A stretch of 64,000 nucleotides of DNA from an uncultured Planctomycetales bacterium (lineage in GTDB: Bacteria > Omnitrophota > Gorgyraeia > Gygaellales > Profunditerraquicolaceae). Positions 3,270 through 40,835 of this stretch are shown piece after piece; within the stretch, counting starts at the first letter, position 1, and each line of letters starts with the position of its first letter. The notes beneath the pieces were generated by a model, which had not been told where the DNA came from, did not search any database, and was given only the letters and a program-made list of their open reading frames with translations. A program made the position numbers and the translations under genes. The DNA lies in the NCBI GenBank assembly GCA_964542785.1, contig CAZIUK010000001.1:197115-261114 (forward strand), read 5' to 3'.

Positions 3270-3374
3270 GGGACGCTTCCGAAGGTACCACTCTCCAACG
3301 GTTTTTGGCTAAAAACAGCTAAAAATTGTTAAAAATAATATATTTTTTAGCGGAGCGGCACCTCGGGAGGCGTC
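3270..3374. mobile_element. MITE-like inverted-repeat element, copy A (rpsA-tyrS intergenic)
   Basis: Left end GGGACGCTTCCGAAGGTACCACTCTCCAACGG, AT-rich core with AAAAACAGCTAAAAATTGTT, right end GGCACCTCGGGAGGCGTC is the reverse complement of the left end. Confidence 0.7.
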
Positions 3375-3383
3375 TTCAAGAAG

Positions 3384-4544
3384 ATGATGGAAGAGCAATT
3401 AGCTATAATTAAGCGCGGTGCAGTTGATATTATTTCTGAAGAAGAGTTGCGCAAGAAGCTTAAAGAAAGCATTAAAACCAAAAGGCCGCTTAAAGTAAAA
3501 GCAGGCTTTGACCCCACTGCTCCTGACTTACATTTAGGGCATACTGTTCTTTTACGTAAGCTCCGTCAATTCCAAGATTTAGGCCATGAGGTCTATTTTT
3601 TAATCGGAGATTTTACCGGAATGATTGGCGACCCTACTGGCCGCTCTGAGATAAGAAAGCAACTCACCCGACAAGAAGTTGCTCGCAATGCCTTAACTTA
3701 TAAAAAACAGGTTGCAAAGATTCTAAATTTACGCAAGTTAAAAATAGTCTTTAACAGCAGATGGTTTAGCCGTTTTTCAGGCACAGATATCTTAAAATTA
3801 ACTACTCACTCCTCAATCTCTCAGATTTTAGCCCGCGATGATTTTAAAAAACGCTATACCTTAGGAGAGAATATCTCTATGTTGGAGTTTATGTATCCTT
3901 TGCTGCAAGGTTATGATTCGGTTGTCTTAAAGGCGGATATTGAAATTGGCGGGACTGATCAGATATTCAACCTTCTTGTTGGACGCGATATGCAAAAGGA
4001 CTTTAACCAACCTCAGCAGGTAGTTTTGACTATGCCGCTTTTAGAAGGTACCGATGGTACCCAAAAGATGAGCAAATCCTATTGTAACTATATCGGTATT
4101 AACGAACCGGCAAAAGAGATATTTGGTAAGGTTATGTCTATCTCAGATAACCTGATGCTTAAGTATTACGAACTGCTTACCGATGAGGATTTGGATAAAA
4201 TTAAAGGGATGCATCCGCGCGAGGCCAAAGTTAACCTTGCTAAAATTATCATTACCCAGTATCATTCTAGCGAAGCAGCGCAAAAAGAGGCGGATGAGTT
4301 TACGCGCGTTTTTTCTTTAAAAGAAATCCCGCAGGATATTCCAACATTTAAGGCAGACGCTACAAAAAATATAATAACAATACTTACGGAAAGTAAGCTT
4401 GCCTTAAGCGGAAATGAAGCGCGCCGTTTAGTTAAGCAGGGGGCTGTAAGTTTTAATAACATAAAAGTAGAGAATGAGGATTTTATCCCTAAGGAATCAG
4501 GCGTATTAAAAGTCGGCTCCCGCCGCTTCCTCAAAATCCTCTAG
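3384..4544 (+). CDS. tyrS: tyrosine--tRNA ligase
   Basis: HLGH (HIGH) and KMSKS class-I motifs; C-terminal S4-like domain. Confidence 0.93.
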
Positions 4545-4576
4545 GGGACGCTCCCCAAGGTACCACTCTCCAAAGG
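4544..4576. repeat. solo MITE terminal repeat (left-end type)
   Basis: GGGGACGCTCCCCAAGGTACCACTCTCCAAAGG, identical to the left TIR of the full copies; ends 8 nt before the next ATG. Confidence 0.6.
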
Positions 4577-4584
4577 ATTTTAGC

Positions 4585-4875
4585 ATGTTTTGGACCATAA
4601 TTGGCTCAACAGCAGCAACTCTAACCATGCTTTCTTTTATCCCGCAGATAGTTCGCTCCTATAAAAGCAAGCATGTTAAAGATATCAGCCCGGTTATGCT
4701 CTTTCAGCTCTCTTTAGGTGTCTCTTTATGGATAGCCTACGGCATACACCGCAAAGACCCTATAATTATCATCGCAAACTCCACAACCCTGCTTACGCTC
4801 TTAATCCTCATCTCAATGTATTTTCAGTATGGGGGACGCTCCCCAAGGAGCCACTCTCCAAAGGATTTTGAGTAA
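4585..4875 (+). CDS. SemiSWEET (PQ-loop) sugar transporter; last ~14 codons encoded by MITE copy C
   Basis: 96 aa, 3 TM; the PQ motif (LSFIPQIVRSYKSKHVKDIS) and YGIHRKDPIIIIAN match bacterial SemiSWEETs closely; C-terminus GGRSPRSHSPKDFE is translated from the MITE TIR. Confidence 0.8.
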   Translation: MFWTIIGSTAATLTMLSFIPQIVRSYKSKHVKDISPVMLFQLSLGVSLWIAYGIHRKDPIIIIANSTTLLTLLILISMYFQYGGRSPRSHSPKDFE

Positions 4876-4943
4876 AATCGTATAAAAAAATGCAAAAAAT
4901 CGGTCATTTTCGAAGAAGAGTGGTACCTCGGAGAGCGTCCCCC
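4832..4943. mobile_element. MITE-like element, copy C
   Basis: GGGGACGCTCCCCAAGGAGCCACTCTCCAAAGG ... GAAGAGTGGTACCTCGGAGAGCGTCCCCC. Confidence 0.7.
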
Positions 4944-5711
4944 AGGAGCAGGTTTATTCTTGCTGAATCTGACGGGCTTGTCCTTGAAACTATTCAGACC
5001 TATAGCGCTAACCCTCCCCGCAGAGGCCAGCCTCCAATAGAAACAAAAGGCATTGCCTCCAAACAAGAGTTACGTCTTCTTAAACTCAAAGGCACTTGGC
5101 GCGCCAACCCCTACAACGAGCTTGTATTTGAAGCCTCCGGCCGCAAAGGGAAGCCTGAAAAATTTACCTTCAAAGGCGCTTGGAAGTTAAATAAAAACCA
5201 ACATATTGAATACAAGACTGAAAATAACCGCGATACTCTAACCTTCAAAGGCCATTGGAAAATCCTCTCAGATAAAAAGCTCGTCTATATTTTAGAGGGG
5301 AGCTCAAAGTCAAAATTTGAGTTTAAGGCCCAATTTGAATCTGCCTCAATGCACCCTAAAAAAGGCGCAATCCGTTATCGTATCGGCATTGGAGCGCGCA
5401 GGCGCAGTAGAATCTCTCCGCATAAACTTTTAATACTCTACGGCGAATGGAAATTCAGCCGCAACTTAGGCCTTCTCTTTAATATAGATTACGGGTACAA
5501 CAGAATACAAGCAATATCCCTTGGCGCAGTAGTAACCTTCAGCCCCAACAAAATCGAACTCGCCTTAAGAAATGAATTTGGCAAGCCAATAGGAATTACT
5601 CTTACCTTAACTCGCAAGCTCTTCAAATCCCTTAATGCAAAAGCCTATCTAAGGCTTACCCACCGCCGCCAAGAAAAAGCAATTGAATCCGGCATCACCA
5701 TCCCCTTTTAG
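4890..5711 (+). CDS. hypothetical protein, beta-rich with C-terminal Phe (possible outer-membrane beta-barrel remnant); start uncertain (ATG lies inside the MITE)
   Basis: Only long ORF here; alternating hydrophobic pattern and terminal ...GITIPF; no signal peptide; first ATG is inside MITE copy C; C-rich codon usage unlike neighbours. Confidence 0.4.
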   Translation: MQKIGHFRRRVVPRRASPRSRFILAESDGLVLETIQTYSANPPRRGQPPIETKGIASKQELRLLKLKGTWRANPYNELVFEASGRKGKPEKFTFKGAWKLNKNQHIEYKTENNRDTLTFKGHWKILSDKKLVYILEGSSKSKFEFKAQFESASMHPKKGAIRYRIGIGARRRSRISPHKLLILYGEWKFSRNLGLLFNIDYGYNRIQAISLGAVVTFSPNKIELALRNEFGKPIGITLTLTRKLFKSLNAKAYLRLTHRRQEKAIESGITIPF

Positions 5712-5740
5712 GGGGACGGTTCCTCGCTTCTCAACTCCAG
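5711..5740. repeat. degenerate solo MITE end
   Basis: GGGGACGGTTCCTCGCTTCTCAACTCCAG resembles the TIR with several mismatches. Confidence 0.25.
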
Positions 5741-5816
5741 TAATTACATTACCTTACAACAACATCAAAATATTAGCTGATCCAACCCTCAACAAAAGGA
5801 GGGGAAAATCCCTTAA

Positions 5817-6076
5817 ATGAAGCCTAATAAAATTTTAACCCTTCTCTTTCTCTTCAGCATCGCGTTCTTCCTGCCCAACGCCTCTGCTCAACCCTTATTC
5901 GGCAAAGACTACCTGCAAACCCTTGATAAACACCTAACCCAATCCAAAGACTCTATCACCGTAGCCATGTATTTTATTATAATCACCCCCGAAGACAACC
6001 CAACCCCGGCTAACCAACTCGTAAATTCCCTCATCGCCGCAAAGAATCGCGGAGTAAAAATAAAGGTAATCTTAAA
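5817..6076 (+). pseudogene. PLD-family Nuc-like endonuclease/phospholipase D gene truncated by MITE copy E
   Basis: Signal peptide then KDSITVAMYFI...ANQLVNSLIAAKNRGVKIKVIL matches the N-terminal half of Nuc-type PLD proteins; reading frame runs into the MITE just before where the HxK(x)4D motif would be. Confidence 0.6.
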
Positions 6077-6187
6077 GGGGACGCTCCCCAAGGTACCATG
6101 CTTCGGAGGTTTTTGCCCTAAAACCGCGTAATTTTTAATAAAAACAGTTGATTTTGGAGGGAGAGTGGCACCTCGGAGAGCGTCCCC
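6077..6187. mobile_element. MITE-like element, copy E
   Basis: GGGGACGCTCCCCAAGGTACCATGCTTCGGAGG ... AAAAACAGTTGATTTTGGAGGGAGAGTGGCACCTCGGAGAGCGTCCCC; 111 bp. Confidence 0.75.
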
Positions 6188-6212
6188 AAGGACTGAAGGA
6201 TACATAATTAAC

Positions 6213-6240
6213 TTGACAAATCATATTTGTATTGTATAAT
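6213..6240 (+). promoter_or_regulatory. sigma70-like promoter TTGACA-N16-TATAAT, -10 box ends 6 nt before the ATG (leaderless or near-leaderless)
   Basis: TTGACA at 6213-6218, TATAAT at 6235-6240, ATG at 6247. Confidence 0.5.
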
Positions 6241-6246
6241 TTAAGT

Positions 6247-7425
6247 ATGAAATACTTCAGCAGGAATATAGAAGGCGCGCTTAAGCAGGCAGTGAAGCAA
6301 TTCCGCGTTTTAGTTCTAACCGGGATGCGCCAGACAGGAAAATCCACGCTTCTTTGGCACCTTTTTAAAAAAACGCACCGTTATGTTTCTTTGGATAATC
6401 CCCGCGATTTAAAACTTGCCCAGGAAGACCCTGAGTTATTTTTTGATGAATACAGAGAGCCTTTGATAATAGATGAAATCCAGTATGCCCCGCAGCTTTT
6501 AGCGTATATTAAAATAAAAGTAGATAAATCCGCAAAAAGAGGCCAGTTTATTCTTACTGGTTCTCAACAGTTTACGATGACTTATAATCTGCAAGAGACT
6601 TTAGCGGGCAGAGCGGCGATCTTTAATCTTTTTCCTATGGCTATTACTGAGGCAAAAATCGCTACGCAGAATTATGTTTTTCGCGTCATCAATGGCTCAT
6701 ATCCGGAGTTGATTGTAAGGCGAAGCCATGACCCGCAGCGCTGGTTCGGGTCTTATGTGGCTACATATATTGAAAAGGATATCCAGCCTTTCTACCGGCT
6801 GGAGAAGGCGGCTTATTTTCGCAACCTTCTTTTTCTTTTAGCTGCCCGTTCATCTCAAGCATTAAATTACCAGTCTCTTTCTAATGATTTAGGCGTCTCA
6901 ATTCAAGCAGTAAAATTTTGGATTAATATTCTTGAAATATCGCAGGTTATATACTTGCTTAGGCCGTATCATAGCAATTTAGGAAGCCGTATTGTAAAAT
7001 CCCCAAAAGTCTATTTTACCGATGCCGGATTAGTGAATTATTTAATAGGCAATCAATCAAAAACCGCTTTGGTGCGCGGCGCGCAGGCAGGGGCTATCTT
7101 TGAAAATTTTGTAGTTCAGGAGTTATTAAAACATTATCATAACCTCGGGTTAACCCCGCCTCTTTACTATTACCGGACAAATAACGGGCTGGAAATAGAT
7201 ATAATTATTGAAGAAAGAGCAGGAGTAATCAGGCCTTGTGAAATTAAATTAACTAAAACGCCGAATTCAGGAATGGTTAATTCAATAGAGCGGTTTTGCA
7301 ATTTAAATAAAAGTAAGAAATTATCCATATTGGACGGTTGTGTTATATCGCTTGTTGATAAGTCTTTTCCTCTTACTAAAACTGTCAGGGCGTATAATTT
7401 AAAAGAGTTTCTGTCGGTTATTTAA
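6247..7425 (+). CDS. AAA+ ATPase with DUF4143 domain
   Basis: Walker A GMRQTGKST, Walker B LIIDEIQ; typical AAA_14/DUF4143 architecture. The ORF track starts at TTG 6232; ATG 6247 preferred. Confidence 0.8.
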   Translation: MKYFSRNIEGALKQAVKQFRVLVLTGMRQTGKSTLLWHLFKKTHRYVSLDNPRDLKLAQEDPELFFDEYREPLIIDEIQYAPQLLAYIKIKVDKSAKRGQFILTGSQQFTMTYNLQETLAGRAAIFNLFPMAITEAKIATQNYVFRVINGSYPELIVRRSHDPQRWFGSYVATYIEKDIQPFYRLEKAAYFRNLLFLLAARSSQALNYQSLSNDLGVSIQAVKFWINILEISQVIYLLRPYHSNLGSRIVKSPKVYFTDAGLVNYLIGNQSKTALVRGAQAGAIFENFVVQELLKHYHNLGLTPPLYYYRTNNGLEIDIIIEERAGVIRPCEIKLTKTPNSGMVNSIERFCNLNKSKKLSILDGCVISLVDKSFPLTKTVRAYNLKEFLSVI

Positions 7426-7436
7426 ATACGTCCCCT

Positions 7437-7547
7437 GGGGGACGCTCCCCAAGGTACCATGCTTCGGAGGTTTTGCCCTAAAACCGCGTAATTTTTAATA
7501 AAAACAGCTGATTTTGGAGGGAGAGTGGCACCTCGGAGAGCGTCCCC
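7437..7547. mobile_element. MITE-like element, copy F (near-identical to copy E)
   Basis: Differs from copy E by about 2 indels/substitutions; preceded at 7428-7435 by a CGTCCCC fragment of another right end. Confidence 0.75.
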
Positions 7548-7599
7548 AAGGTGGGGACTGTCCCTAAATTTAAGATAGTTATCCAACTTCCTTTAACTA

Positions 7600-7627
7600 T
7601 TGCCATATCTATAATTTATTGTATAAT
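7600..7627 (+). promoter_or_regulatory. candidate promoter TTGCCA-N16-TATAAT upstream of the glycan locus
   Basis: Sequence match only. Confidence 0.35.
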
Positions 7628-7710
7628 ATGGTTTTACAAAACTTAAGTAAAGTATTGCAGGGTATGTTCTATCTGCAAGGAAGTTAAAGTTTATCTAAAG
7701 GAGAAATAGA

Positions 7711-8478
7711 ATGAAAGTAGTTATATTAGCAGGAGGCAGGGGCACACGCATTAGCGAAGAGACAGAAGTTTTGCCAAAGCCGATGATTCAGATAGGAGGC
7801 AGGCCTGTGCTTTGGCATATAATGAAACTATACTCCCACTATGGCTTTAATGATTTTATTATCTGCTTAGGGTATAAGGGTTTTGTGATTAAAGAATATT
7901 TTGCAAATTACTTCCTGCACTCCTCTGACATAACCATAGACCTAAATAATAATAAAATAGAGGTTATCGGTTCAAAGGCAGAGCCTTGGAAGGTTACTCT
8001 TATTGATACGGGTTTAGAGACGATGACCGGAGGCAGGATTAAGCGGATAGAAAAATATACGCAAGATAAACCCTTTCTTTTAACTTACGGCGACGGGGTA
8101 GGGGATGTAAATATAAAAGAATTAGTAGAGTTCCATAAATCAAAAAACAAGCTTGCCACAGTAACTGCCGTACAATTAGAAGGAAGGTTCGGCGCTTTAA
8201 ATATTGAAAAAGAAGATGAGGTCTCTTCCTTTGCGGAAAAACCCCGCGGCGACGGAGCTTGGATAAACGGCGGATTTTTTGTTTTAGAGCCGGGGATATT
8301 CAAATATATCAAGGACGATACTATTATTTGGGAGCATGGGCCATTAGAAAAGCTAGCCAAAGACAATCAGCTAAACGCCTACAAGCATAAAGGTTTTTGG
8401 AAGTGTATGGATACCTTAAGGGATAAGGTTGAGTTTGATCTTCTATGGAGTGCCGGGAAAACCCCTTGGATAAAATAG
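7711..8478 (+). CDS. rfbF: glucose-1-phosphate cytidylyltransferase
   Basis: N-term MKVVILAGGRGTRISEETEVLPKPMIQIGGRPVLWHIM matches RfbF/DdhA; 255 aa. Confidence 0.9.
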   Translation: MKVVILAGGRGTRISEETEVLPKPMIQIGGRPVLWHIMKLYSHYGFNDFIICLGYKGFVIKEYFANYFLHSSDITIDLNNNKIEVIGSKAEPWKVTLIDTGLETMTGGRIKRIEKYTQDKPFLLTYGDGVGDVNIKELVEFHKSKNKLATVTAVQLEGRFGALNIEKEDEVSSFAEKPRGDGAWINGGFFVLEPGIFKYIKDDTIIWEHGPLEKLAKDNQLNAYKHKGFWKCMDTLRDKVEFDLLWSAGKTPWIK

Positions 8479-29790: not shown

Positions 29791-29876
29791 GGGTGTCCCC
29801 AAATAGAAAGGAACGGGGACAGCCGTCCGATTGGCAAGTTGGGTGTCCCTAATATGAGGGTTGTGTTTTGGTCTTG

Positions 29877-29987: not shown

Positions 29988-29994
29988 AGGTTTT

Positions 29995-31020
29995 ATGAAG
30001 AAAATAGAAGATAAAAAGATTAAAAAGATTTTAATAATTGGGCATCGTAATATCGGTGATGCCTGTTGCGACCTTGTTGTGGTCGGGCCGCTGCGCCGTA
30101 AGTTTAAGAACGCGGAGATTGTTTTCTTAACTTCTGCGGTTTCACAAGATATAGTTGAGGGATATAAGGGGTTAGACAGGGTTATTGTCTTTGACAAATA
30201 TGGCGTAGATAAAGGTATCCGGAGGCGTTTGCGCCTGTTATTGTTATTGAGAGGTGAGCGTTTTGACCTTGTGGTGGCACTATCTTCCACCTGGATGTAT
30301 AAATATGTCGGAGGCACATATCAATGGAGCGTTAGAAAGTATCTTGGGTGTTTGCCGCAAGATAAAAAAATGCATATCGCTGATATATATCTTGAATTCC
30401 TGCGCTCCTTTGGCGTGGAAACAGAAAGGGAACACTGGGATTTTAATGTGGAAGGGGAAGATAATTTTTGCGATGAGTTTTTAAGAAAAGCTGGCGTAAA
30501 CAATGGGGACAGAATAGCCGGGATTTTACCCTATAGCGGTTGGCTTTTAAAGGACTGGCCGGTTGAAAGATGGAACGAGCTGGCTAATTTATTAAACAGT
30601 AAGTATAATATTAAAGTTATTGCTTTTGGCAGGGTTGCCGATGATATTAAAGGGAAAGAGAAATTAATACAACTGTCACCTTTGATTATATCCGCGGTTA
30701 ATAAGACCACTTTAAAGCAGGCACTATCTTTAATTAAGCGCTGTAATCTTTTTATAGGGGTAGATTCCAGCCTTCTGCATTTAGCAAGCTGTGTGGGGGT
30801 GGAAACAATCGGTTTATTCGGGGCAACTTCAAAAGAATATATTTACCCGTATTTTCATTATTCTAATGTAATTACCCCTGCGCAAAAGCGCTATTGCATG
30901 CCTTGTTATCCCGGGTTAAATCCTTGTCCATGTATGAAGAATAAGCTCGTCCGCAGCCCTTGTATGGAAGATATTTCTGTGGAAAGTGTAATGCAATTAG
31001 TAAAACAAAGGAGTATGTAA
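29995..31020 (+). CDS. ADP-heptose:LPS heptosyltransferase (GT9)
   Basis: KILIIGHRNIGDACC, GVDSSLLHLASCVG. Confidence 0.85.
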   Translation: MKKIEDKKIKKILIIGHRNIGDACCDLVVVGPLRRKFKNAEIVFLTSAVSQDIVEGYKGLDRVIVFDKYGVDKGIRRRLRLLLLLRGERFDLVVALSSTWMYKYVGGTYQWSVRKYLGCLPQDKKMHIADIYLEFLRSFGVETEREHWDFNVEGEDNFCDEFLRKAGVNNGDRIAGILPYSGWLLKDWPVERWNELANLLNSKYNIKVIAFGRVADDIKGKEKLIQLSPLIISAVNKTTLKQALSLIKRCNLFIGVDSSLLHLASCVGVETIGLFGATSKEYIYPYFHYSNVITPAQKRYCMPCYPGLNPCPCMKNKLVRSPCMEDISVESVMQLVKQRSM

Positions 31021-31788
31021 ATGGCTAATTTATCGGTAGTAGTTTTAACAAAGAATGAAGAGGCATGTATTGCAGAGTGTCTTGAGTCGGTGAAGTGGGC
31101 GGATGAAATAATCGTAGTAGATGATGAGAGTACTGATAAAACTTTAGAGATTGTTAAGCAATTTAACGCGAAGGTTTTTGTAAGGAAGATGGATGTTGAA
31201 GGAACTCATAGGAATTGGGCGTATGCGCAGGCGCGTAATCCTTGGGTTTTAAGTTTAGACGCGGATGAGTCTGTAACACCTGAGTTAAAGACAGAGATTG
31301 AACAAGCAATGAAGTCTGAGGAGTTTGTGGCGTTTAGTATTCCGTTACGTAATTATATTAGTAATTATTGGGTAAGGTATGGGGGGTGGTATCCTGCTTC
31401 TAAGGTACGGTTATTTAGGAGAGATAAGTTTAGGTATGAAGAAGTTGAGGTGCACCCTAGGGCTTTTATTGAAGGGAAGTGTGGGCATTTAAAATCGGAT
31501 ATAATTCATAAAGGATACCCTGATTTAGAGCACTTTCTTAATAGCGTTAATCGTCAGTCCACTTTGGAGGCAAAAAAGTGGATTAATACAGGGCGTAAGA
31601 TGAGCTTGGGGCATATAATTTGGAGGGCAGTAGATCGTTTCTTCAGGCGTTACCTGCGCAAGAAGGCCTATAAAGACGGGATGTACGGGTTTATAATCGC
31701 ATTTTTTGATACTTTATATCAAATATTAAGTTACGTAAAATACAAAGAAATGCTTAACAGGGACACCCAATCTGCTAAAGATATATGA
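31021..31788 (+). CDS. waaE: LPS core biosynthesis glycosyltransferase WaaE/KdtX-like (GT2)
   Basis: LSVVVLTKNEE...DEIIVVDDESTDKT...SLDADE matches KdtX/WaaE; 255 aa. Confidence 0.8.
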   Translation: MANLSVVVLTKNEEACIAECLESVKWADEIIVVDDESTDKTLEIVKQFNAKVFVRKMDVEGTHRNWAYAQARNPWVLSLDADESVTPELKTEIEQAMKSEEFVAFSIPLRNYISNYWVRYGGWYPASKVRLFRRDKFRYEEVEVHPRAFIEGKCGHLKSDIIHKGYPDLEHFLNSVNRQSTLEAKKWINTGRKMSLGHIIWRAVDRFFRRYLRKKAYKDGMYGFIIAFFDTLYQILSYVKYKEMLNRDTQSAKDI

Positions 31789-32348
31789 GGGTTGCGTTTT
31801 TGGATAGAGACGGGGTTATAAATAAATATCCGGGAGATAAGGCTTATGTAACATCTCTGCGGAAGTTTAAATTTTTACCCGGGGCAAAGAAGGCGATAGC
31901 GCTGTTAAGCAGGGGAGGGTATAAGATATTTGTTGCCTCTAATCAGGCAGGGGTTGGCAGGGGCATATATAGCCAAAAGACTTTAGACAAAATAACCTCT
32001 TTTATGCTTTTAGAGGTTAAAAAAGCAGGCGGGCATATTGATAAGGTTTATTACTGCACCCACCATAAGAAAGCAGGTTGCTCTTGCCGTAAGCCAAGGC
32101 CGGGGATGCTTAAGAAAGCTAAGCGCGAGTTTAAGATTAACCTTAAAAACGCTTATTTTATCGGCGATACAATCCGCGATGTGCTTGCCGCTAAAAACGC
32201 CGGGTGTAAGTCTATTCTTGTCTTCTCAGGGAAAGAGAAATTAAGGAATAAACTTAAGTGGGAGGTTGCCCCTGATTTTACCTTTAAGGACCTCTATAGC
32301 GCGGCAAAACACCTCTTAAAAGTTAAAAAAACTTTAATTAAATCTTGA
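31785..32348 (+). CDS. gmhB: D-glycero-D-manno-heptose 1,7-bisphosphate phosphatase
   Basis: FLDRDGVIN HAD motif; zinc motif C-x-H...C-x-C (CTHHKKAGCSCRKP). Confidence 0.9.
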   Translation: MRVAFLDRDGVINKYPGDKAYVTSLRKFKFLPGAKKAIALLSRGGYKIFVASNQAGVGRGIYSQKTLDKITSFMLLEVKKAGGHIDKVYYCTHHKKAGCSCRKPRPGMLKKAKREFKINLKNAYFIGDTIRDVLAAKNAGCKSILVFSGKEKLRNKLKWEVAPDFTFKDLYSAAKHLLKVKKTLIKS

Positions 32349-32406
32349 CAGGGGCTAGAATATCAGGTATAGTTAATTAACATAAATGTTAACTAACTAT
32401 GCTTAG

Positions 32407-33000
32407 ATGAATTACCTTAAAATCAGTAGATTAAGCAAGTTTTACTTTTCTTACCGCGATATCGCCAAGGCCCGCTGTATATCCTTGCCCTCAGCGCGGG
32501 TTGCCTTAAGCCGCCTTGTAAAAAGCGGAAGCATTATCCGCCTTAAAAGGGGCTTGTATGTTTTAGCCCAAAGGTTAAATTACTCTTCTCTTGAAGAGAA
32601 GTTTTTATTAGCCAACCTTATTCAGCCTGCTTCTTATATTTCTTTTATGACTGCTTTGAGTTTTTACGAAGTTACAACGCAACTTCAACGCAACTTTATA
32701 GAATCAGCAGGTTACCTAAGGACTAAGGAGGTAGAGGCAGGAGGGAATCTTTTTAACTATGTTAAGATAAAAAAAGATATTTACTTTGGGTTTATAAAGA
32801 CAAGCGGGTATTTTATCGCTACCCCGGAAAAGGCGTTCTTAGACGCTTTTTATCTAAAATCTTTAAAAAGGTATAACTTTGACCTTGCTTCAATTAATTT
32901 TAAGCGGCTTAATAAGGATAAACTTTTTCAGTTATCCCGCAAATACCCTTTACTAGCCCGCAAACTCTTATTAAAATATGGATACATTAAGAAGGCATGA
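32407..33000 (+). CDS. AbiEi-like antitoxin / transcriptional regulator (type IV TA)
   Basis: N-terminal wHTH-like (...ALSRLVKSGSIIRLKRGLYVL); overlaps the downstream AbiEii gene by 23 nt. Confidence 0.5.
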   Translation: MNYLKISRLSKFYFSYRDIAKARCISLPSARVALSRLVKSGSIIRLKRGLYVLAQRLNYSSLEEKFLLANLIQPASYISFMTALSFYEVTTQLQRNFIESAGYLRTKEVEAGGNLFNYVKIKKDIYFGFIKTSGYFIATPEKAFLDAFYLKSLKRYNFDLASINFKRLNKDKLFQLSRKYPLLARKLLLKYGYIKKA

Positions 33001-33625
33001 GATATTTGAGATAGAGGTTTTAAAGAAGCTTAAAGATAGGCAGCTTCTCTTGCCGCTCGTCTTTGTCGGCGGGACAATGCTTCGGCTCTGTTATGACCTT
33101 AATAGGTATTCAACGGATCTTGATTTTTGGTTTTTAAAAAAAGTAGAGCAAAGAGGGTATTTTAAAAAATTAAAAGATGCCTTAAGCGGCTATCAGATAA
33201 CTGATTCTAAATTAAAATTCAATACTATTCTCTTGGAGGTTCGGAGTAAAAATTATCCTAAACGGCTTAAGATAGAGATAAGAAGGCAGGTTAAAGATTT
33301 AGACCTTCAGGAGAGGATTGCCTTTTCTAAGTTTACTACTCTTCAGGTTGCGTTAAAGGCGCTTACTTTGCAGGGGGCAATGAAAGCTAAGATTGAGGCA
33401 GGGTTAGATAGAAAAGATATCAGGGATTTTTATGATATGGAGTTTTTGTGCCGTCAGGGAGCAGAGGTTAAGGCAGGAGAGAAGGAGTTAGAGAAGTTAA
33501 AGGAAATTATCTTAAGTTTTAAGGCGCAAGATTACAAGGTTGCCTTAGGCTCACTCCTTGAAGAGGAAGAACGAAAGTATTACGTAAAGAATGGGTTTGA
33601 GTATCTATTAAGCAGGCTATCCTAG
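32978..33625 (+). CDS. AbiEii-family nucleotidyltransferase toxin (DUF1814)
   Basis: LVFVGGTMLRLCYDLNRYSTDLDFW matches the KGGTAL..RFSEDLDF NTase motif. Confidence 0.75.
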   Translation: MDTLRRHEIFEIEVLKKLKDRQLLLPLVFVGGTMLRLCYDLNRYSTDLDFWFLKKVEQRGYFKKLKDALSGYQITDSKLKFNTILLEVRSKNYPKRLKIEIRRQVKDLDLQERIAFSKFTTLQVALKALTLQGAMKAKIEAGLDRKDIRDFYDMEFLCRQGAEVKAGEKELEKLKEIILSFKAQDYKVALGSLLEEEERKYYVKNGFEYLLSRLS

Positions 33626-33735
33626 GGGACGCTCCCCAAGGTACCACTCCGCTTTCAAAAATGCCTGTTTTTGATAAAAATTATTCAATTTTTGCCCAAA
33701 AGTCAATGGAGAGTGGCTCCTCAGGGAGCGTCCCC
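33625..33735. mobile_element. MITE-like element, copy H
   Basis: GGGGACGCTCCCCAAGGTACCACTCC ... GTCAATGGAGAGTGGCTCCTCAGGGAGCGTCCCC; starts at the AbiEii stop codon. Confidence 0.75.
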
Positions 33736-33754
33736 AAGGTTAAAGGATAGGCGT

Positions 33755-34846
33755 ATGAGGGTATTGATTGTTTATGCTTCAGCAGGCGCGGGGCACAGGC
33801 GCGCAGCAGAGGCAGTTTATGATTATTTAAAGGCTAATCGTCCGGATTTATCTTTAAAGATTATTGACGCCTTAGATAGGACGAATGCTCTGTTTAGGTT
33901 TGATTATACCGTAGGGTATTCTTTTCTTGTTAGGTATGCGGTTGGGCTTTGGAGGTTTGCTTTTTGGTTGACAGAGTTTAAGGCCTTTCGTTTTTTAAGC
34001 GCGCCGATTGCTACATTTGTAAATAATATCAACTCTTTAAGCTTTATCCGCTACCTTATCCGCAAAAACCCCGACTATATTATCTCTACTCATTTTCTCT
34101 CAGCGGATATTGCCGCGTTATTAAAGCGCAAGAAAAAGATTACCTCAAAGTTGATAACGATTATTACTGACTTTGGCGTTCATCCTTATTGGATTGCCCA
34201 AGGGACTGATTTTTATGTTGTGGCGTCTGATTTTACTAGAAGGCGGCTTTTAAGCGAGGGGGTTAGGGAAGAAAGGATAAAAGTATTCGGCCTTCCTTTT
34301 CATCAGAAGTTTTTGAAAGACTTTGACCGCAAGGCGCTGGCAGAGAAAATCGGGATTAATCCGGATAAGTTTACGGTTATGCTTATGACCGGAAGTTTTG
34401 GCACTGGGCCGTTAAAGAAGATTGCCCGGATGCTTTCTTTTAAGGCGCAGGTGTTGGTGGTTTGCGCGTCTAATGAGAAGTTGCGCAAGGGGTTTTTAAG
34501 GGAGAGATTGCCAAATGTGAAGGCCTTTGGGTATATAAATAATACTGAAGAGCTTATGGCGGTTTCTGATTGCATTGTGACAAAGGCAGGGGGCTCTACT
34601 ATAGCTGAGATTATTAATATGGGGTTAGTCCCGATTTTTATCTCTATTATCCCGGGACAGGAGTCTGGAAATGTTGAAGCAATGCAGGATATGGGGGTTG
34701 GTTTTGTCCCGAAAAACCTTAAAGAGTTAAGGGATATAATTATAGTTTTGAAGAATAACCCTGCCAAACTTGAAGAGATGCAAGAGAGGATAGAGGGGGT
34801 AAAAAAACCTTTTGTCTGCCAGGAGATATCTAATGTTATACGTTAA
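33755..34846 (+). CDS. MGDG-synthase/UgtP-like glycosyltransferase (GT28)
   Basis: MRVLIVYASAGAGHRRAAEAV N-term; C-terminal GT28 motif TKAGGSTIAE. The ORF track start 33671 lies inside the MITE; ATG 33755 preferred. Confidence 0.75.
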   Translation: MRVLIVYASAGAGHRRAAEAVYDYLKANRPDLSLKIIDALDRTNALFRFDYTVGYSFLVRYAVGLWRFAFWLTEFKAFRFLSAPIATFVNNINSLSFIRYLIRKNPDYIISTHFLSADIAALLKRKKKITSKLITIITDFGVHPYWIAQGTDFYVVASDFTRRRLLSEGVREERIKVFGLPFHQKFLKDFDRKALAEKIGINPDKFTVMLMTGSFGTGPLKKIARMLSFKAQVLVVCASNEKLRKGFLRERLPNVKAFGYINNTEELMAVSDCIVTKAGGSTIAEIINMGLVPIFISIIPGQESGNVEAMQDMGVGFVPKNLKELRDIIIVLKNNPAKLEEMQERIEGVKKPFVCQEISNVIR

Positions 34847-36644
34847 GGTTGTTTTAGGGTTGCCGTTGGATTGTTCTTTTGATTATTTTGTGCCGAAAGA
34901 ATTAGAAAAGGAGGTTTCTGTTGGCGCAAGGGTCTGGGTTAATTTCCGTAATAAAAAGTCAGTCGGGTATATAGTTGGATTAGCAAAGAGGACAAAGATA
35001 AAGAAGGTTAAAGAGGTTTTAGGGTTGATTGATAAGAGTCCTTTGTTAAGCAAGAATTTGCTTAAGCTCGCTCGTAATTTAGCTGATTATTACTGCTCTT
35101 CTTACGGCGAAGCGATAGAGGCAATGTTGCCTCAACCATTCCGTCAAGGTAAGCCGGGGGACGCTCTCCAAGGTGCCAGGCTTCCTTTGTCGGAGAGTGG
35201 TTCCTTAGGGAGCGTCCCCCAGGTATTAGAGGGGAGAGAGCCGAGTAAGAGGTGGGAGTTTTATATAAAAGAGTTAAAGAAGGCAGAAAGCGAAGGCAAC
35301 TCCGCAATAGTACTATTCAGCGATATGCAGACACTCTTAAAAGCAAAAGACATTTTTGAGAAAGCCCAAATTAAAGATATCTTCATTTTTCACCGCAAAG
35401 AGAAAGATGAGTCTTTGATTTGGCAGGAGGCGCGCCTTAAACAAAGGTGTGTTGTTTTAGGGACTCGCTCGGCTATCTTTGCTCCGCTTAATAACTTAAA
35501 ATTAATTATCATAGATCGTGAGGAAGATTCAGTTTATAAACAGGAGCAATCTCCTCATTATCATGCCCGCCAAATAGCCTTTATGCGCGCAAAAATAGAG
35601 GATGCCCAAGTTATTTTAGAAAGCACAAGCCCTTCTGTGGAAAGTTTTTTTCTTACACAAGAAAAGAAAGCTATCTATCAAATCTTAAACAGATTAAAGC
35701 CGTATCCACAGATATCTATAGTAGATACCAAGCGTATGCCCTATGCTGAGCGAAGAAGTAAGGCGATATTTCCAAGGGTACTAACAGATGCTATATTTTC
35801 TACTCTCTCCCAAGAGGGTAAAGTGCTTGTTTTTATAAACCGCAGGGGTTTTGCAACTTTTTCTGCTTGCCATAACTGTGGTAAGGCATTAAAATGCCCG
35901 GCGTGCAATACAAGCTTAGTCTATCACTATGACCAGAGTTTGTTAAAATGTCGTCATTGCGCTTTTAAAATGGCGCTTCCTGATATCTGTCCAAACTGTA
36001 ATGCCGGCTATATTAAGTATTCTGGTTTAGGGACGGATAAAGTTGAAAGCGAGCTTGCGCGCATATTCCCTCAAGCGCGTATTGGAGATGATATTATTGC
36101 CTCAGCAAGCGCAATACTAAAGGAAGAGGATAAGGATTTTGACTTAATCTGTGTCTTAAATATTGACAATGCCTTAAACCGCGTTGATTTTATGGCTGCA
36201 GAGAAGGTTTTTTATTTATTATCAGGGTTAGTTGCCTTAACATCTAAAAAAATAATTATCTTAACAACTTACCCCCGGCACCATATTTTTAAGTCTTTAG
36301 AAAAAAAAGACCCGCAGATTTTTTACGCGCAGGAGTTAAAGTTTAGGAAACAACTTAAATACCCTCCTTTTAGAAGTATGGCACTCTTAAAGCTTCGTGG
36401 AAGGGCTGAAGATAAGGTTAAAAAAGCAGCAGAAGGTCTATTTGAAAAGTTAAAAGAAGGTAGCAGAGGCATAGAAGCTCTCTCTGTAAATCCGGGGGAG
36501 CCCCCAAAACTGCGCAGTAATTATTACTGGCAGATATTATTTACCGCCTCAAGCCCGCTAACCTTAAGCAAGTTCTTAAAAAATAATTTAAAGGATGTAA
36601 AGTATTCGGGTATAATAGTTACGATTGATATAAACCCAATCTAG
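34833..36644 (+). CDS. priA: primosomal protein N' (PriA) homolog with degenerate helicase motifs and an in-frame MITE insertion
   Basis: N-term ...LPLDCSFDYFVP (3' DNA-binding domain), Cys-rich zinc region CHNCGKALKCPACN...CRHCAF...CPNCN; Walker A reads GREPSKRW and DEEH reads DREE. Confidence 0.8.
   Translation: MLYVKVVLGLPLDCSFDYFVPKELEKEVSVGARVWVNFRNKKSVGYIVGLAKRTKIKKVKEVLGLIDKSPLLSKNLLKLARNLADYYCSSYGEAIEAMLPQPFRQGKPGDALQGARLPLSESGSLGSVPQVLEGREPSKRWEFYIKELKKAESEGNSAIVLFSDMQTLLKAKDIFEKAQIKDIFIFHRKEKDESLIWQEARLKQRCVVLGTRSAIFAPLNNLKLIIIDREEDSVYKQEQSPHYHARQIAFMRAKIEDAQVILESTSPSVESFFLTQEKKAIYQILNRLKPYPQISIVDTKRMPYAERRSKAIFPRVLTDAIFSTLSQEGKVLVFINRRGFATFSACHNCGKALKCPACNTSLVYHYDQSLLKCRHCAFKMALPDICPNCNAGYIKYSGLGTDKVESELARIFPQARIGDDIIASASAILKEEDKDFDLICVLNIDNALNRVDFMAAEKVFYLLSGLVALTSKKIIILTTYPRHHIFKSLEKKDPQIFYAQELKFRKQLKYPPFRSMALLKLRGRAEDKVKKAAEGLFEKLKEGSRGIEALSVNPGEPPKLRSNYYWQILFTASSPLTLSKFLKNNLKDVKYSGIIVTIDINPI
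35157..35219. mobile_element. 63-bp mini-MITE (two TIRs, no core) inserted in-frame in priA
   Basis: GGGGACGCTCTCCAAGGTGCCAGGCTTCC-TTTGTC-GGAGAGTGGTTCCTTAGGGAGCGTCCCC; translated as GDALQGARLPLSESGSLGSVP. Confidence 0.7.
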
Positions 36645-36667: not shown

Positions 36668-37612
36668 ATGAAAATAGCATTTTTCGGCAGTTCATATTTC
36701 GCTGTCCCGGCACTTGAGGCGCTTATTAAAAATAAGCATAAAGTTTTTTGCGTTGTTACCCAGTCGGATAAGAAAAAGGGTAGGTACTTGCGTTTAGGGT
36801 ATACTGATATTAAGGCGAAAGCATTAGAGGCAAACCTAAAGGTTTTTCAACCAGAGAACGTCAATACCCCTAAGTCAGTTGAGTATTTAAAAAAGCTTAA
36901 CGTGGATATTTTTGTAATAGTCTCCTATGGCCAGATTTTGTCGCAGGAAGTTTTAGATATTCCAAAGGTATTCCCTTTAAATATTCACGCTTCACTCTTG
37001 CCTAAATACCGTGGTGCAGCGCCTATAAATTGGGCAGTGATAAATGGCGAAAAGGTTACGGGTGTAACTATTATGCAGGTAACTAAAAAGATGGACTCCG
37101 GCCCGATAATCTTACAGCAAAAAATAGATATTTTAAATACGGATGATTCTTGTTCTTTGGAATTTAAACTGCGTGATTTAGGCGCGGATTTGTTGTTAAA
37201 AGCTCTTTCCTTGATAAAGGGTAAGAATTATAAATTAATAGAACAGGATGAAAGAGAGGTTGTCTTTGCCCCTAAGCTTAAAAAAAGCGACGGGCTTATT
37301 AATTGGGAGATGCCTGCGCAAGAGATAGCCAATCTTATCCGCGGGGTTCAGCCTTGGCCGGGAGCTTCTACATGTTATAACGGAAAACTATTAAAGATTT
37401 ATAAAGCAAAGCCTCTTGACTGTAAGTTACCTCAAGTCGATTCTTGTTCTTTTGGAGGAATAGTGTTGGTGGGTAAAGAAGGGATAACCGTAAAAACAGG
37501 AAAAGGATTTTTACTGATTGAGGAGTTACAGCTTGAAGGCAAAAAAAGGCTGACCGCAGGAGAGTTTCTCTTAGGCCACGAGATTAAAATGGGGACAGCG
37601 ACTTTTTTTTAA
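36668..37612 (+). CDS. fmt: methionyl-tRNA formyltransferase
   Basis: N-term MKIAFFGSSYFAVPAL; formyltransferase SLLP/HASLLPKYRG motif; C-terminal domain. Confidence 0.92.
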   Translation: MKIAFFGSSYFAVPALEALIKNKHKVFCVVTQSDKKKGRYLRLGYTDIKAKALEANLKVFQPENVNTPKSVEYLKKLNVDIFVIVSYGQILSQEVLDIPKVFPLNIHASLLPKYRGAAPINWAVINGEKVTGVTIMQVTKKMDSGPIILQQKIDILNTDDSCSLEFKLRDLGADLLLKALSLIKGKNYKLIEQDEREVVFAPKLKKSDGLINWEMPAQEIANLIRGVQPWPGASTCYNGKLLKIYKAKPLDCKLPQVDSCSFGGIVLVGKEGITVKTGKGFLLIEELQLEGKKRLTAGEFLLGHEIKMGTATFF

Positions 37613-37629
37613 AAAAAGTCGCTGTCCCC
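37591..37629. terminator. perfect 19-bp-stem palindrome GGGGACAGCGACTTTTTTT/AAAAAAAGTCGCTGTCCCC (repeat family, cf. 60304)
   Basis: Inverted repeat with A/T tracts; overlaps the last 7 codons and stop of fmt; a partial third arm follows at 37632-37650. Confidence 0.6.
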
Positions 37630-37703
37630 CTGTCAAAAGTCGCTGTTCCCAAAAAAGCAAAAAAGGATTGCATAATTAATAGCTTGTGCTATAATTTTTT
37701 TCT

Positions 37704-38729
37704 ATGCCAGAACTTAGAAAAGATCCGGTTATTGGTAGGTGGGTTATAATCGCTACAGAAAGGGCGCGTAGGCCTGATTATTTTAACGGCGAGAGTCATG
37801 AGCCTGTAGTAGAGAAGTCTTGCCCATTTTGTGAAGGGTTAGAAGAGCAGACCCCTAAAGAGATTTATGCCTTAAGGCCGCGGGGGACTGCGCCTAATAG
37901 CCCTGGGTGGGATTTAAGGGTTGTACCGAGCATAGCCCCTTTTTTAAAGGTAGAAGGAGAGTTAGACCGCCAAGGAAAAGGCCTTTATGACATAATGAGC
38001 GGGATTGGCGCTCATGAGATAATTATTGAAACTAACAAGCATATTGCTAATATAGCTGATTTAACCTTAGATCAGATTACTAAGGTTTTAAAGTGCTATA
38101 CGGATAGGATTTTAGATTTAGAGAAGGATGAGCGTTTTAAATATGTTTTGGCTTTTAAGAATTATGGCGGGGCTGCAGGTGGAAGCAAGATAAGGCATGC
38201 GCGTTCGCAGTTGATAGCTACTCCTGTAAACCCTAAGAGGGTAAAAGAAGAACTTGCTGGAGCAAGACGTTACTTTGATCACCATGAAAGGTGTGTTTTT
38301 TGCGACCTTATCAGGCAGGAGCTTGAACAGAAGTCGCGTTTAATTTTAGATCTAGACGGGTTTGTTGCGGTTAGCCCATTTGCCGCAAGGTTTCCTTTTG
38401 AGACTTGGATACTTCCAAAAAAACACAGCCCTGATTTTACTTCTCAGGATAGTAAGTCCTTAGAAAATCTTGCTAAAATGATGAAGATCGTACTTTTAAA
38501 ATTAAAGAAGGGTTTAAATGACCCGTCTTATAATTATATTATTCATACTGCTCCTTTTAGGCGTAAAAAAGTCGGCTATTGGAAGACGATTGAGCATGAT
38601 TATCATTGGCATATTGAGATTATGCCACGCCTTACACGCATCGCAGGTTTTGAATGGGGGACAGGGTTTTACATTTGCCCGATAGCTCCAGAGGAAGCGG
38701 CTAAATTTTTAAGAGAGGTAGAAGTATAA
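37704..38729 (+). CDS. galactose-1-phosphate uridylyltransferase-like (GalT/HIT family) paralog 1, HPH motif changed to HAR
   Basis: DPVIGRWVII..RP, CPFCEG zinc motif; IRHARSQLIA where GalT has HPHGQ. Confidence 0.75.
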   Translation: MPELRKDPVIGRWVIIATERARRPDYFNGESHEPVVEKSCPFCEGLEEQTPKEIYALRPRGTAPNSPGWDLRVVPSIAPFLKVEGELDRQGKGLYDIMSGIGAHEIIIETNKHIANIADLTLDQITKVLKCYTDRILDLEKDERFKYVLAFKNYGGAAGGSKIRHARSQLIATPVNPKRVKEELAGARRYFDHHERCVFCDLIRQELEQKSRLILDLDGFVAVSPFAARFPFETWILPKKHSPDFTSQDSKSLENLAKMMKIVLLKLKKGLNDPSYNYIIHTAPFRRKKVGYWKTIEHDYHWHIEIMPRLTRIAGFEWGTGFYICPIAPEEAAKFLREVEV

Positions 38730-38730
38730 A

Positions 38731-39726
38731 ATGGGAGAGTTAAGGCGTGATCCTATTGTTGGCAGGTGGGTGATTGTAGATAAAAGTAATACCCCAGCCA
38801 TAAAAGATTTTCAATATGAGAAGAATACCTCTAAAGGTGGGGTATGCCCTTTTTGTTACGGTAATGAAGCTATGGTTCCTCCTGAAGTAGAGTGTTTTAG
38901 AGAACCTGGGACAAGCCCTAATACCTCAGGCTGGTATGTAAGGACTGTGCCGAATAGGTTTCCTGCTTTGCAGATAGAAGGAGATTTAGACAAAAGGCCG
39001 GTAGGGCTTTATGATATGTCTAATGGAGTTGGCGCCCATGAGATAATTATTGAAAGCCCTTATCATGCTAAAGATATTTCAGACCTATTGCCCCATGAAG
39101 TAGAAAATTATATAAGGATGTGCCGTAACCGCGCCTTTGATTTGGCTAAGGATAAGCGTTTTAAATACTTAATGTTTTTCAGGAATTTTGGGCATGGAGC
39201 AGGCGCTTCTTTAGAGCATCCGCATACACAGTTAATCGCTCTGCCTATGGTCCCAAAAAATGTGGCAGAGGAGATTATTGGAGCAAAGAGTTATTTTGAT
39301 TATAAGGAGCGTTGTATCTTCTGTGATATGATAAGGCAAGAGATGCAGGAGAAAGAGCGCATAATATTTGAGAATAAGTATTTTTTGTCCTTTTGCCCTT
39401 TTGTTTCACGTTTTCCTTTTGAGATTTGGATTATGCCTAAAAAGCACAACGCTTACCTTCGTTTTGTTTCAGATGAAGAGATAAAGCTCTTAGCTGAAAT
39501 TTTAAAAGATACGGTAAGCAGGGTAAAAAATATTTTTCCGGATATTTCTTATAATTATATACTTCATGTTGCACCCATTAACGGAGATGTTGATGTAGAG
39601 TATTATCATTGGCATATTGAGTTTATGCCTAAATTAACACAAGTTGCAGGTTTTGAATGGGGGACGGGGTTTTATATTAGCCCGATTACGCCTGAGCGAG
39701 CTGCAAAATATTTAAAAGGAGGGTAA
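38731..39726 (+). CDS. galT: galactose-1-phosphate uridylyltransferase-like paralog 2 (canonical HPH)
   Basis: [17 protein letters not shown]. Confidence 0.8.
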
Positions 39727-39730
39727 TAGA

Positions 39731-40783
39731 ATGGCAGTAAAGGTAGGTATCAATGGTTTTGGGAGGATTGGCAGATTAGTTGCCCGAGCGATATTAGAGA
39801 GAGGCTCTAAAGATATAGAGTTGGTGGCGGTAAATGACTTAACAGATGCAAAGTCAAACGCATACCTTTTTAAATATGACTCCGTACACGGAAGGTTTAA
39901 TGGAGAGGTTAATGCTATTTCGGGTGATACAATCTCAGTCAACGGAAAAGAGATTAAGGTTTTAAGTAAGAGAGACCCTTCAGAGTTACCTTGGAAGGAT
40001 TTAGGGGTTGAGATAGTGGTTGAGTCAACCGGGCTTTTTACCGTCAAAAAAGATGGAGTGAATAAAAAGGGTAAGGAGGTAAAGGGCGCTGAGAATCATA
40101 TAACTAAAGGTGGGGCAAAGAAGGTTATTATTTCTGCTCCGGCTGAAGGCGAGGATATAACTATTGTTATGGGGGTGAATGAGGGTAAGTATGACCCTAA
40201 GAACCATAATGTTTTATCTAACGCCTCTTGTACGACTAATTGCTTAGCACCGGTTGCTAAGGTTATCAATGATAATTGGGGGATAGTAAAGGGATTGATG
40301 ACTACTATCCATGCTTATACTAATGACCAGAAGATTCAGGATATGGCGCATTCGGATTTACGCCGCGCGCGCGCTGCCGCAGTCTCGATGATACCTACTT
40401 CTACGGGTGCGGCTAAGGCGATATCATTGGTTATTCCGGAGCTAAAAGGTAAACTTGATGGTTTTGCAATCCGGGTACCGACACCTAATGTTTCTGTGGT
40501 GGATTTAACCCTTTCTTTAGCAAAGAAAGCTACGGCTGAAGAGTTAAACGCAGCACTTAAGGCAGCTTCAGAAGGTGCCATGAAAGGTATTTTAGGTTAT
40601 ACCGAAGACCCTGTAGTTTCAATTGACTTTAATCATTGCCAATTAAGTTCAGTAGTTGATGCTAAGAGTACCAAGATTATACAGGATGATTTTGTAAAGG
40701 TACTTTCTTGGTATGATAATGAGTGGGGTTATTCAAACCGCGTAGTTGACCTTTGCGAATACATCATCCGCAAAGGCCTCTAA
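39731..40783 (+). CDS. gap: glyceraldehyde-3-phosphate dehydrogenase
   Basis: [22 protein letters not shown] active-site motif. Confidence 0.95.
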
Positions 40784-40795
40784 AACCTAATCTTG

Positions 40796-40835
40796 GGGGA
40801 CAGGCACTTGGAGAGCGTCCCCTAGGGGACAGGTT
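40796..40835. repeat. MITE fragment (right-end type) plus GGGGACAGG motifs
   Basis: GGGGGACAGGCACTTGGAGAGCGTCCCCTAGGGGACAGG. Confidence 0.4.

Follow-up and report, generated by a model that had tools for sequence, protein, structure and literature searches.

What are the short inverted repeats that recur along a 64,000-nt stretch of contig CAZIUK010000001.1 (hereafter the window), and what moves them? A first-pass annotation, made from the letters alone, had described a family of ~111-bp elements resembling miniature inverted-repeat transposable elements (MITEs), all lying in one orientation. The repeat family is real, and it is most likely composed of REPIN-like elements, i.e. doublets of inverted repetitive extragenic palindromes (REPs), representing a known kind of system in a little-studied phylum. 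We consider it highly probable that they are non-autonomous elements moved in trans by a REP-associated tyrosine transposase (RAYT) of the Y1/HUH type, whose gene is flanked by the same ends. By its sequence the source organism is an Omnitrophota bacterium, and the named homologues of its PriA protein and of the transposase are labelled Omnitrophota or Omnitrophica. For comparison we use a sister contig with ~89% identity to the window, JBASUY010000030.1 (loci L010 and L012). The members of the family in the window are:

3265–3379, + strand: REPIN c3270, a full copy with decayed outer ends that occupies the rpsA–tyrS spacer
4540–4576, no strand: solo REP end, overlapped at CTAGGGGAC by the tyrS stop codon TAG
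4828–4946, + strand: REPIN c4832, covering the last 15 codons of the SemiSWEET open reading frame (ORF) and the first ~18 codons of ORF 4890–5711
6073–6191, + strand: REPIN c6077, twin of c7437, which terminates the truncated PLD-like ORF 5817–6131
7434–7551, + strand: REPIN c7437, whose outer edge is the right border of a window-specific 1.78-kb segment
29873–29990, − strand: REPIN c29877, reversed with respect to the first four; part of a window-specific 3.1-kb segment, with a GT9 gene 5 nt downstream
33621–33739, − strand: REPIN c33625, likewise reversed with respect to the first four, with the start (33755) of an MGDG-synthase-like gene 15 nt downstream
35157–35219, no strand: 63-bp mini-REPIN, in frame within priA (codons 116–136), in the linker after the 3'BD domain
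40788–40840, no strand: degenerate, short hairpin of REP type with GGGGACAGGTTTGG, paralogous to the 3'-flanking sequence of the RAYT gene in this lineage

The six full copies of ~111 bp, the mini-copy and the solo end at 4544–4576 reported by the first-pass annotation are all borne out by the sequence, a profile and a 28-mer search. The full copies span 3269–3375 (with degenerate ends), 4832–4942, 6077–6187, 7438–7547, 29876–29986 and 33625–33735, and the inverted repeat extends 4 nt further than the bounds first proposed (CCTNGGGGAC...GTCCCCNAGG). The 28-mer end GGGGACGCTCCCCAAGGTACCACTCTCC has 10 matches in the window at ≤3 mismatches, compared with none in 100 dinucleotide shuffles. A profile derived from the six full copies finds each of them again, together with the solo end (4540–4582) and both arms of the 35157–35219 copy. 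Three further partial ends had been claimed. The one at 40796–40835 stands, with a profile match at 40788–40826 (E 0.0014) that we grade as a weak but real relative and that matches the sequence on the 3' side of this lineage's RAYT gene. Those at 5711–5740 and 7428–7435 give no match in the profile search of the window, have only GGGGGACG and CGTCCCC in common with the family, and are dropped here. Copies c6077 and c7437 are 99% identical, while other pairs of copies share ~65% identity. Because the copy regions are reproduced at 99.5–100% identity in contigs from five other metagenome samples, an assembly artefact is excluded. A scan of metagenome DNA with the lineage-specific 21-mer GGYACCTCGGAGAGCGTCCCC returned one short contig and no additional copies, and a scan of viral contigs with the generic end gave 0 matches.

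Each end is built on a REP unit, a palindrome of ~21 nt (CCTTGGGGA-CGC-TCCCCAAGG) followed by GGTRCCAC or GGGACAC. Two such units in inverted orientation flank an AT-rich, semi-palindromic spacer of ~55 nt. The earlier picture of small, scattered mobile elements that are not autonomous, and whose inverted ends of ~30 bp each bear a small GGGGA-CGC-TCCCC hairpin, is retained. The entire element can fold as one long hairpin, and folding, which had been proposed as a check, places the hairpin of every copy well past shuffled controls, with z-scores of −2.8 to −7.8 for DNA and −4.2 to −9.6 for RNA. The consensus hairpin has 23 pairs, of which the terminal 12 are nearly invariant and 7 of the 23 show a double-sided, pair-preserving change. 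A CT dinucleotide is found 1 nt outside GGGGAC at most ends. No consistent target-site duplication accompanies the copies under either of two boundary definitions, flank matches being limited to 0–2 nt. With the sister-genome orthologues and the mis-registered c3270 counted and the twin c7437 left out, stem mismatches comprise 24 A.C and 15 G.T. An A.C on the + strand corresponds to a G.U on antisense RNA, and a strand bias was therefore considered and set aside, as the counts are too weak to interpret.

Which enzyme recognizes such ends? Scanning one genome per species with a degenerate 21-mer end yielded 31 loci (designated L), mostly in metagenome-assembled genomes (MAGs) of Omnitrophota. 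The possibility, raised by the first-pass annotation, that the copies are confined to the window is removed by the identical-type ends found in many of these MAGs. At L011 (1845–2597) and L016 (4652–5404) the ends enclose a 753-bp unit with a single ORF of 196–199 aa. Near-identical inverted ends, reading CCTGGGGGACGCTCCCCAAGGT.CC and GTGTCCCTTTGGGGAGCGTCCCCCAGG, lie on both sides of the gene in five of seven Omnitrophota loci (L011, L016, L035, L039 and L042). Locus L040, which encodes a 56%-identical paralogue, has the co-varying end variant GGGGACGTTCCCC on both sides; L041 has this variant upstream only, and a matching downstream end was looked for and not found. In the five loci with near-identical ends, the gene has the same neighbors, on one side the last of the pseudopilin genes in a type II secretion-like operon and on the other a tRNA gene, which argues for a fixed locus rather than a multi-copy insertion sequence.

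The enclosed ORF belongs to Pfam family Y1_Tnp (E 1e-15 and 3e-17 in the two 753-bp units), which covers residues 12–127 of 196–199; Pfam finds no C-terminal helix-turn-helix (HTH) domain, Y1_Tnp standing alone in the 196-aa protein. The best NCBIfam model is that of the REP-associated tyrosine transposase (NF047646), with 69 and 74 bits, and the IS200 model scores 26–27 bits. P0016, the RAYT of the window's own lineage, can be aligned to Escherichia coli TnpA_REP (4ER8), and the two agree in the HUH motif NHLHLL, the catalytic YIERNP, and the motifs QNRF and WPW(N/S)S. There are 316 homologues at E ≤ 1e-10, and among the best 120 of these most are 195–197 aa long, most occur on 1–3 contigs per cluster, and every named source is Omnitrophota or Omnitrophica. 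Judged from sequence, the gene arrangement is that of a REPtron (PMC3116915, PMC5581495, PMC3333891), which makes the dispersed 111-bp elements REPIN-like doublets of its ends. The five syntenic loci all share a motif, GCGTTAGATTT...CTTGCGTCTATTA, in the interval from the upstream REP to the start codon of the RAYT gene; this motif may be a promoter or operator for the transposase.

These observations bear directly on whether the elements are classical MITEs, that is, deleted derivatives of a DDE-transposase insertion sequence that move by cut-and-paste through their 30-bp terminal inverted repeats. Elements of that kind would also have inverted ends of ~30 bp, a size of ~111 bp and an AT-rich core, and solo ends of the same sequence do occur beside other genes in other phyla (L006, L015 and L017). 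What distinguishes the two is (i) the lack of a consistent target-site duplication, (ii) the nature of the only gene found between the ends, which at seven loci is a Y1/HUH transposase, with no DDE transposase between such ends in the fetched loci, and (iii) the palindromic character of each individual end, which is the signature of a REP. Given the absent duplication and the RAYT-type enclosed gene, the MITE label in its usual sense is not supported, and we regard a MITE origin as very unlikely.

The connection between the RAYT and the window comes from metagenome contigs. For both P0016 and P0121, the latter 100% identical to the window PriA, the longest contig is 646,370 bp, and both are found in JGI sample 3300076594. 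One flank of P0016, GGGGACGCTCTCCAAGGTGCCAGGCTCC, is the left arm of the priA mini-copy, and another, GGAGAGCGTCCCCCAGGGGACAGGTTTGG, equals window positions 40811–40839 save one base. It is therefore very likely, from these sequence matches, that the genome of the window encodes RAYT P0016.

A REPIN–RAYT system of this type suggests the following scheme. A single-copy, chromosomally fixed RAYT would mobilize the elements in trans. By analogy with E. coli TnpA_REP and IS608, it would recognize and bind the hairpin of a REP on single strands of DNA, such as those at replication forks, and cut beside that hairpin. Rejoining of strands by the RAYT could then allow copies to be excised, inserted or rearranged without a target-site duplication. 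A copy placed between co-transcribed genes would be transcribed as a stable mRNA hairpin, with a possible secondary effect on mRNA stability or translation. We infer catalysis by this RAYT, the position of cleavage and any effect at the RNA level; the signs of mobility, namely the absence of a target-site duplication, the 99% identical twins, and the presence/absence and half-copy differences relative to the sister genome, are observed.

Several points weigh against assigning the elements to a RAYT. The GTAG tetranucleotide of classical REPs is absent, the ends reading CCTNGGGGACGC instead. The NF047646 scores of 69–74 bits fall below the 80-bit equivalog cut-off of that model. A tblastn search finds no RAYT in the 64-kb window, and the presence of the gene in the source genome is deduced from the matching longest contig and sample rather than read directly. 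Finally, the twin copies and the insertion/deletion differences could have arisen by recombination rather than transposition.

Does the orientation of the copies point instead to a role in the transcript? The first-pass annotation had all six full copies co-oriented with the genes, estimated a probability of about 1/32 for random insertion, and proposed selection acting on transcripts. Pairwise alignments of the cores alone group c3270, c4832, c6077 and c7437 together, with c33625 reversed and c29877 reversed more weakly. For a non-circular test, we used a hidden Markov model (HMM) built from four elements of other, non-orthologous genomes. It favors the + strand for c4832 (75.8 versus 26.7 bits), c3270 (56.6 versus 13.7), c7437 (51.0 versus 32.9) and c6077 (49.7 versus 30.9) and the − strand for c33625 (66.3 versus 44.2) and c29877 (35.5 versus 22.5). 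When the copies are oriented in this way, the left spacer CCACTCTCCAAYGRTTTTTGGCTAAAAA lines up across copies and genomes. The split is thus 4:2, or 3:2 if the twins c6077 and c7437 are taken as one event, so the uniform orientation and the probability argument built on it both fall, and selection on transcripts need not be invoked on this ground. The sub-motif AAAAACAGCnAAAAATnGTTGGAGAG, which had been noted next to the right end of four copies, arises in part because the spacer is palindromic within itself: the version in c29877 corresponds, as its reverse complement, to CTCTCCAACGGTTTTTGGCT on the left-hand side of c3270. It is the semi-palindromic spacer that misled the motif-based call. 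Since both strands of a doublet present one REP and one inverted REP, the elements may insert either way round and no bias is expected. In other genomes, orientation relative to genes, assigned by a/b arm types, is 5:1 in six cases, which is not significant. The suggested coupling to replication is mechanistically reasonable because Y1 transposases work on single-stranded DNA at replication forks (PMC3333891, PMC6006769), but the orientation data provide no evidence for it.

The elements might still be host-selected RNA structures, such as terminators, attenuators or mRNA-stabilizing hairpins, held in one orientation relative to transcription. All copies lie in or between co-directional genes and would be transcribed, and as RNA they fold at −41 to −62 kcal/mol. 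Orthologues are retained at 92% identity (aligned blocks with short flanks) with compensatory changes, and REPs are described as stabilizing E. coli mRNA (PMC3733652). The mixed 4:2 orientation is difficult to reconcile with such a role, as is the better folding of the antisense strand in several copies. None of the REPINs is called as an intrinsic terminator; they lack a U-tract, with tails reading CAGG or AAGG, and Rfam at the gathering threshold gives no match in the whole window. One copy is in frame in priA and others overlap the ends of ORFs, and compensatory changes in DNA palindromes can also come from template switching. Taken together, we think it quite unlikely that these are RNA elements maintained by the host.

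The placement of the REPINs relative to genes is close throughout. All sizeable ORFs lie on the + strand and the GC skew is +0.15 to +0.34 throughout, 4–8 kb excepted, which places the whole window on one replichore with its genes co-directional with replication; positions 4001–8000 form the sole stretch of negative skew (−0.05). A tRNA scan of the window found none. The copies nearly occupy the whole of the short spacers between co-transcribed genes, and the stop codons of tyrS and abiEii overlap CTAGGGGAC. Within REPINs lie the last codons of the SemiSWEET ORF and of the truncated PLD ORF as well as the first ~18 codons of ORF 4890–5711, whose start is conserved in frame in the sister genome. 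This ORF of 273 aa, for which Pfam gives no match, derives its N-terminus from the REPIN right arm in both genomes.

The most intimate association with a gene is that of the mini-copy in priA. It encodes GDALQG...LGSVPQ at PriA codons 116–136, directly after the 3'BD domain, which is the site of the winged-helix domain in enterobacterial PriA. Peptides of the REP ends, LGDAPQG and LGSVPQ, recur in many Omnitrophota PriA proteins at 60–67% identity, with interiors that vary and in one case reach the full length of a REPIN, and nucleotides of L005 confirm REP ends in priA. The peptides were not found in PriA homologues at ≤56% identity. Either the insertion is old and has been kept homogeneous, or the linker has been hit repeatedly. 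As near-perfect REP ends persist across PriA proteins that are only 60–67% identical, the priA REPIN may, on a reading that we rate as unlikely, be kept for a function tied to replication restart. Di Nocera et al. (PMC3733652) had earlier remarked that REPs inside genes are often found in those for replication and repair. The gene itself (34812–36644) encodes a PriA of 610 aa without a winged-helix region. At the Walker A position the window protein reads LEGREPSKRWEFY, and Klebsiella PriA has LAGITGSGKTEVY; by sequence, the ATP site of the helicase appears to be degenerate, with the same loss in homologues across Omnitrophota.

How stable are the copies over the distance separating the window from its sister? 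Copy c3270 is kept at the orthologous site (L010 6129–6239) with 92% identity over an aligned block that includes short flanks, and c33625 is kept too, at 92% identity in an aligned block that takes in a diverging left flank; one of its pairs has changed in a compensatory way from T-A to C-G. The priA mini-copy is likewise retained, at 63 nt in the window and 66 nt in the sister, both in frame and with paired changes in the arms. Of c4832 the right half alone is present in the sister genome, consistent with a microhomology deletion. Copy c6077 is absent there. The solo end at 4544 is specific to the window, and the sister has 230 bp of GGGGACAGC-type hairpins in its place.

Larger differences between the two genomes also involve REPINs. 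The gene cassettes concerned in two of them are:

6247–7425, + strand: DUF4143/AAA_14 ATPase gene with its own 12/12 consensus promoter (6213–6240) and the twin REPINs on both sides
32345–33625, + strand: AbiEi/AbiEii toxin–antitoxin cassette with its own promoter, abutting the left edge of REPIN c33625 exactly

Three segments are specific to the window: 5770–7553, with a PLD-like fragment, c6077, the DUF4143 ATPase and c7437; 27895–31007, with glycosyltransferase duplicates, c29877 and the GT9 gene; and 32322–33621, with the AbiEi/AbiEii pair that is absent from the sister and lies exactly at the left edge of c33625. All three touch or hold a REPIN: two end exactly at a REPIN edge and the glycosyltransferase block holds one inside. 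The PLD-like ORF is cut by its REPIN after 104 aa. The promoter of the ATPase (TTGACA-16-TATAAT) ends 6 nt before the ATG, so its mRNA would be nearly leaderless, and the promoter of the AbiEi/AbiEii pair matches the consensus at 11 of 12 positions. Near c29877 lies a 140-bp tandem duplication (29480–29759, 99% identical), within a degenerate second copy of a GT2 glycosyltransferase gene (28990–29869 versus 31007–31788; 81–87% identical). The GT2 duplication looks like a recent local rearrangement.

Segments so placed raise the question of whether the repeats might be recombination scars or attachment-type sites for accessory cassettes and not move themselves. All three segments abut or hold a repeat end, they carry the ATPase and the AbiE pair with their own promoters, and REPs are known insertion targets (PMC1525189). 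Against this, c3270, c33625 and the priA mini-copy stand at conserved positions without cargo, no integrase is seen beside the cassettes, and the repeats flank a transposase of the type that mobilizes REPs. We judge passive attachment sites of this kind to be extremely unlikely. That REP ends are places of difference between the window and its sister fits known insertion into REPs (PMC1525189).

A further, unlikely idea is that accessory gene cassettes enter the genome at the ends of REPINs or are even carried by them. It is prompted by the contact of every window-specific segment with a REPIN and by the occurrence of a VapBC pair and a second DUF4143 ATPase near REP ends elsewhere. If the RAYT were to cut at the feet of REPs and join foreign single-stranded DNA, the RAYT/REPIN pair would be a cassette-capture system, and not purely a selfish or domesticated repeat. 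The other DUF4143 ATPase directly follows the RAYT unit in L016 and is 40% identical to that of the window. A composite transposon carrying the ATPase was considered and rejected, since other loci encoding the same protein represent the same locus only and the RAYT-adjacent protein of L016 has only that 40% identity. In L006 (4385–5300), L015 (from 6119) and L017 (1–1671), the same REP end with a near-identical stretch after it adjoins a gene for a HAD hydrolase. A VapBC-like pair comes next in two of them, L006 and L017, and L017 also has a C-terminal fragment of a RAYT. The MAGs are labelled Desulfaltia, Aminicenantales and 'Eubacteriales', which suggests either that a larger unit bounded by REPs has been transferred horizontally or that there are errors of binning.

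Several described systems come close to the family. As in the REPIN–RAYT systems of Pseudomonas and Enterobacteria (Bertels & Rainey 2011, PMC3116915; Nunvar 2010, PMC2817692; Ton-Hoang 2012, PMC3333891), an inverted palindrome doublet forms a hairpin of ~110 bp, the repeats also flank an apparently single-copy Y1/HUH gene, target-site duplications are lacking, solo REPs occur as decayed halves, and copies persist at orthologous sites. The differences here are the lack of a GTAG tag, an unrelated REP sequence (GGGGACGC...), the Omnitrophota host and a transposase that scores just under the NCBIfam RAYT cut-off. RAYT-like genes flanked by GGGGWSAS inverted repeats have been named TIRtrons (Di Nocera et al. 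2013, PMC3733652). These TIRtrons/TIRYTs (subclass 2.1, PMC6006769) likewise combine RAYT-like genes in longer inverted repeats with moderately abundant dispersed dimers, and their ends beginning GGGGWSAS are matched at 7 of 8 positions by GGGGACGC and at all 8 by a second local family, GGGGACAG. Quentin et al. 2018 (PMC6006769) associate the class with an HTH domain at the C-terminus, of the DnaA_C/HTH_23/HTH_28-like type in subclass 2.1 proteins, whereas the 196-aa protein here has Y1_Tnp only, and each repeat end here is itself a REP-like palindrome. By sequence, then, the system appears to work like a REPIN–RAYT pair but to fit neither described subclass cleanly.

The IS200/IS605 elements (IS608, ISDra2) share the catalytic fold and motifs and the single-strand, hairpin-guided, duplication-free transposition that we infer here, but they are multi-copy and strand-specific and lack inverted ends, and the IS200 model gives only the 26–27 bits noted above. 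Rickettsia palindromic elements (RPEs) and intragenic REPs resemble the mini-copy in that an in-frame palindrome is tolerated in an essential gene, although their sequence is unrelated; we know of no dedicated transposase for RPEs. The Correia elements (NEMIS) of Neisseria, at ~100–150 bp with inverted ends of ~26 bp, are co-transcribed with their neighbors as here. They duplicate a TA at their target and are not known to come with a Y1 transposase; no target-site duplication is seen here.

REPIN–RAYT systems are known chiefly from work on Proteobacteria, which treats them as replicators within genomes that persist for long periods and pass down vertically, and our literature search found no paper linking them to Omnitrophota. 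REP doublets together with a syntenic, apparently single-copy RAYT in an uncultured, deep-branching phylum would extend the known range. In practical terms, the repeats explain the breaks of metagenome assemblies of this organism into contigs of 2–4 kb at these sites. They also mark differences from the sister genome and are therefore useful in strain typing and in annotation, with ORF starts and stops lying inside REPINs. The in-frame insertion in priA, which is seemingly old, provides a natural experiment on how such repeats last within essential genes.

Two further repeats in the window deserve mention. The second hairpin family, which begins GGGGACAG (for example GGGGACAGCGACTTTTT...AAAAAGTCGCTGTCCCC, with an 18-bp stem), is found at 37591–37629, 60306–60341, 26769–26800, 7553–7565 and 29766–29850 of the window and at 3053–3110 on the reverse strand of L010. 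It occurs at operon ends before promoter-like sites; between tyrS and SemiSWEET, where the window has the solo REP, the sister genome has this family instead. These hairpins look like terminators. The adjacent genes 37704–38729 and 38731–39726 are paralogous, with ~75–79% identity over several blocks (repeat families D8, D14, D18 and D19).

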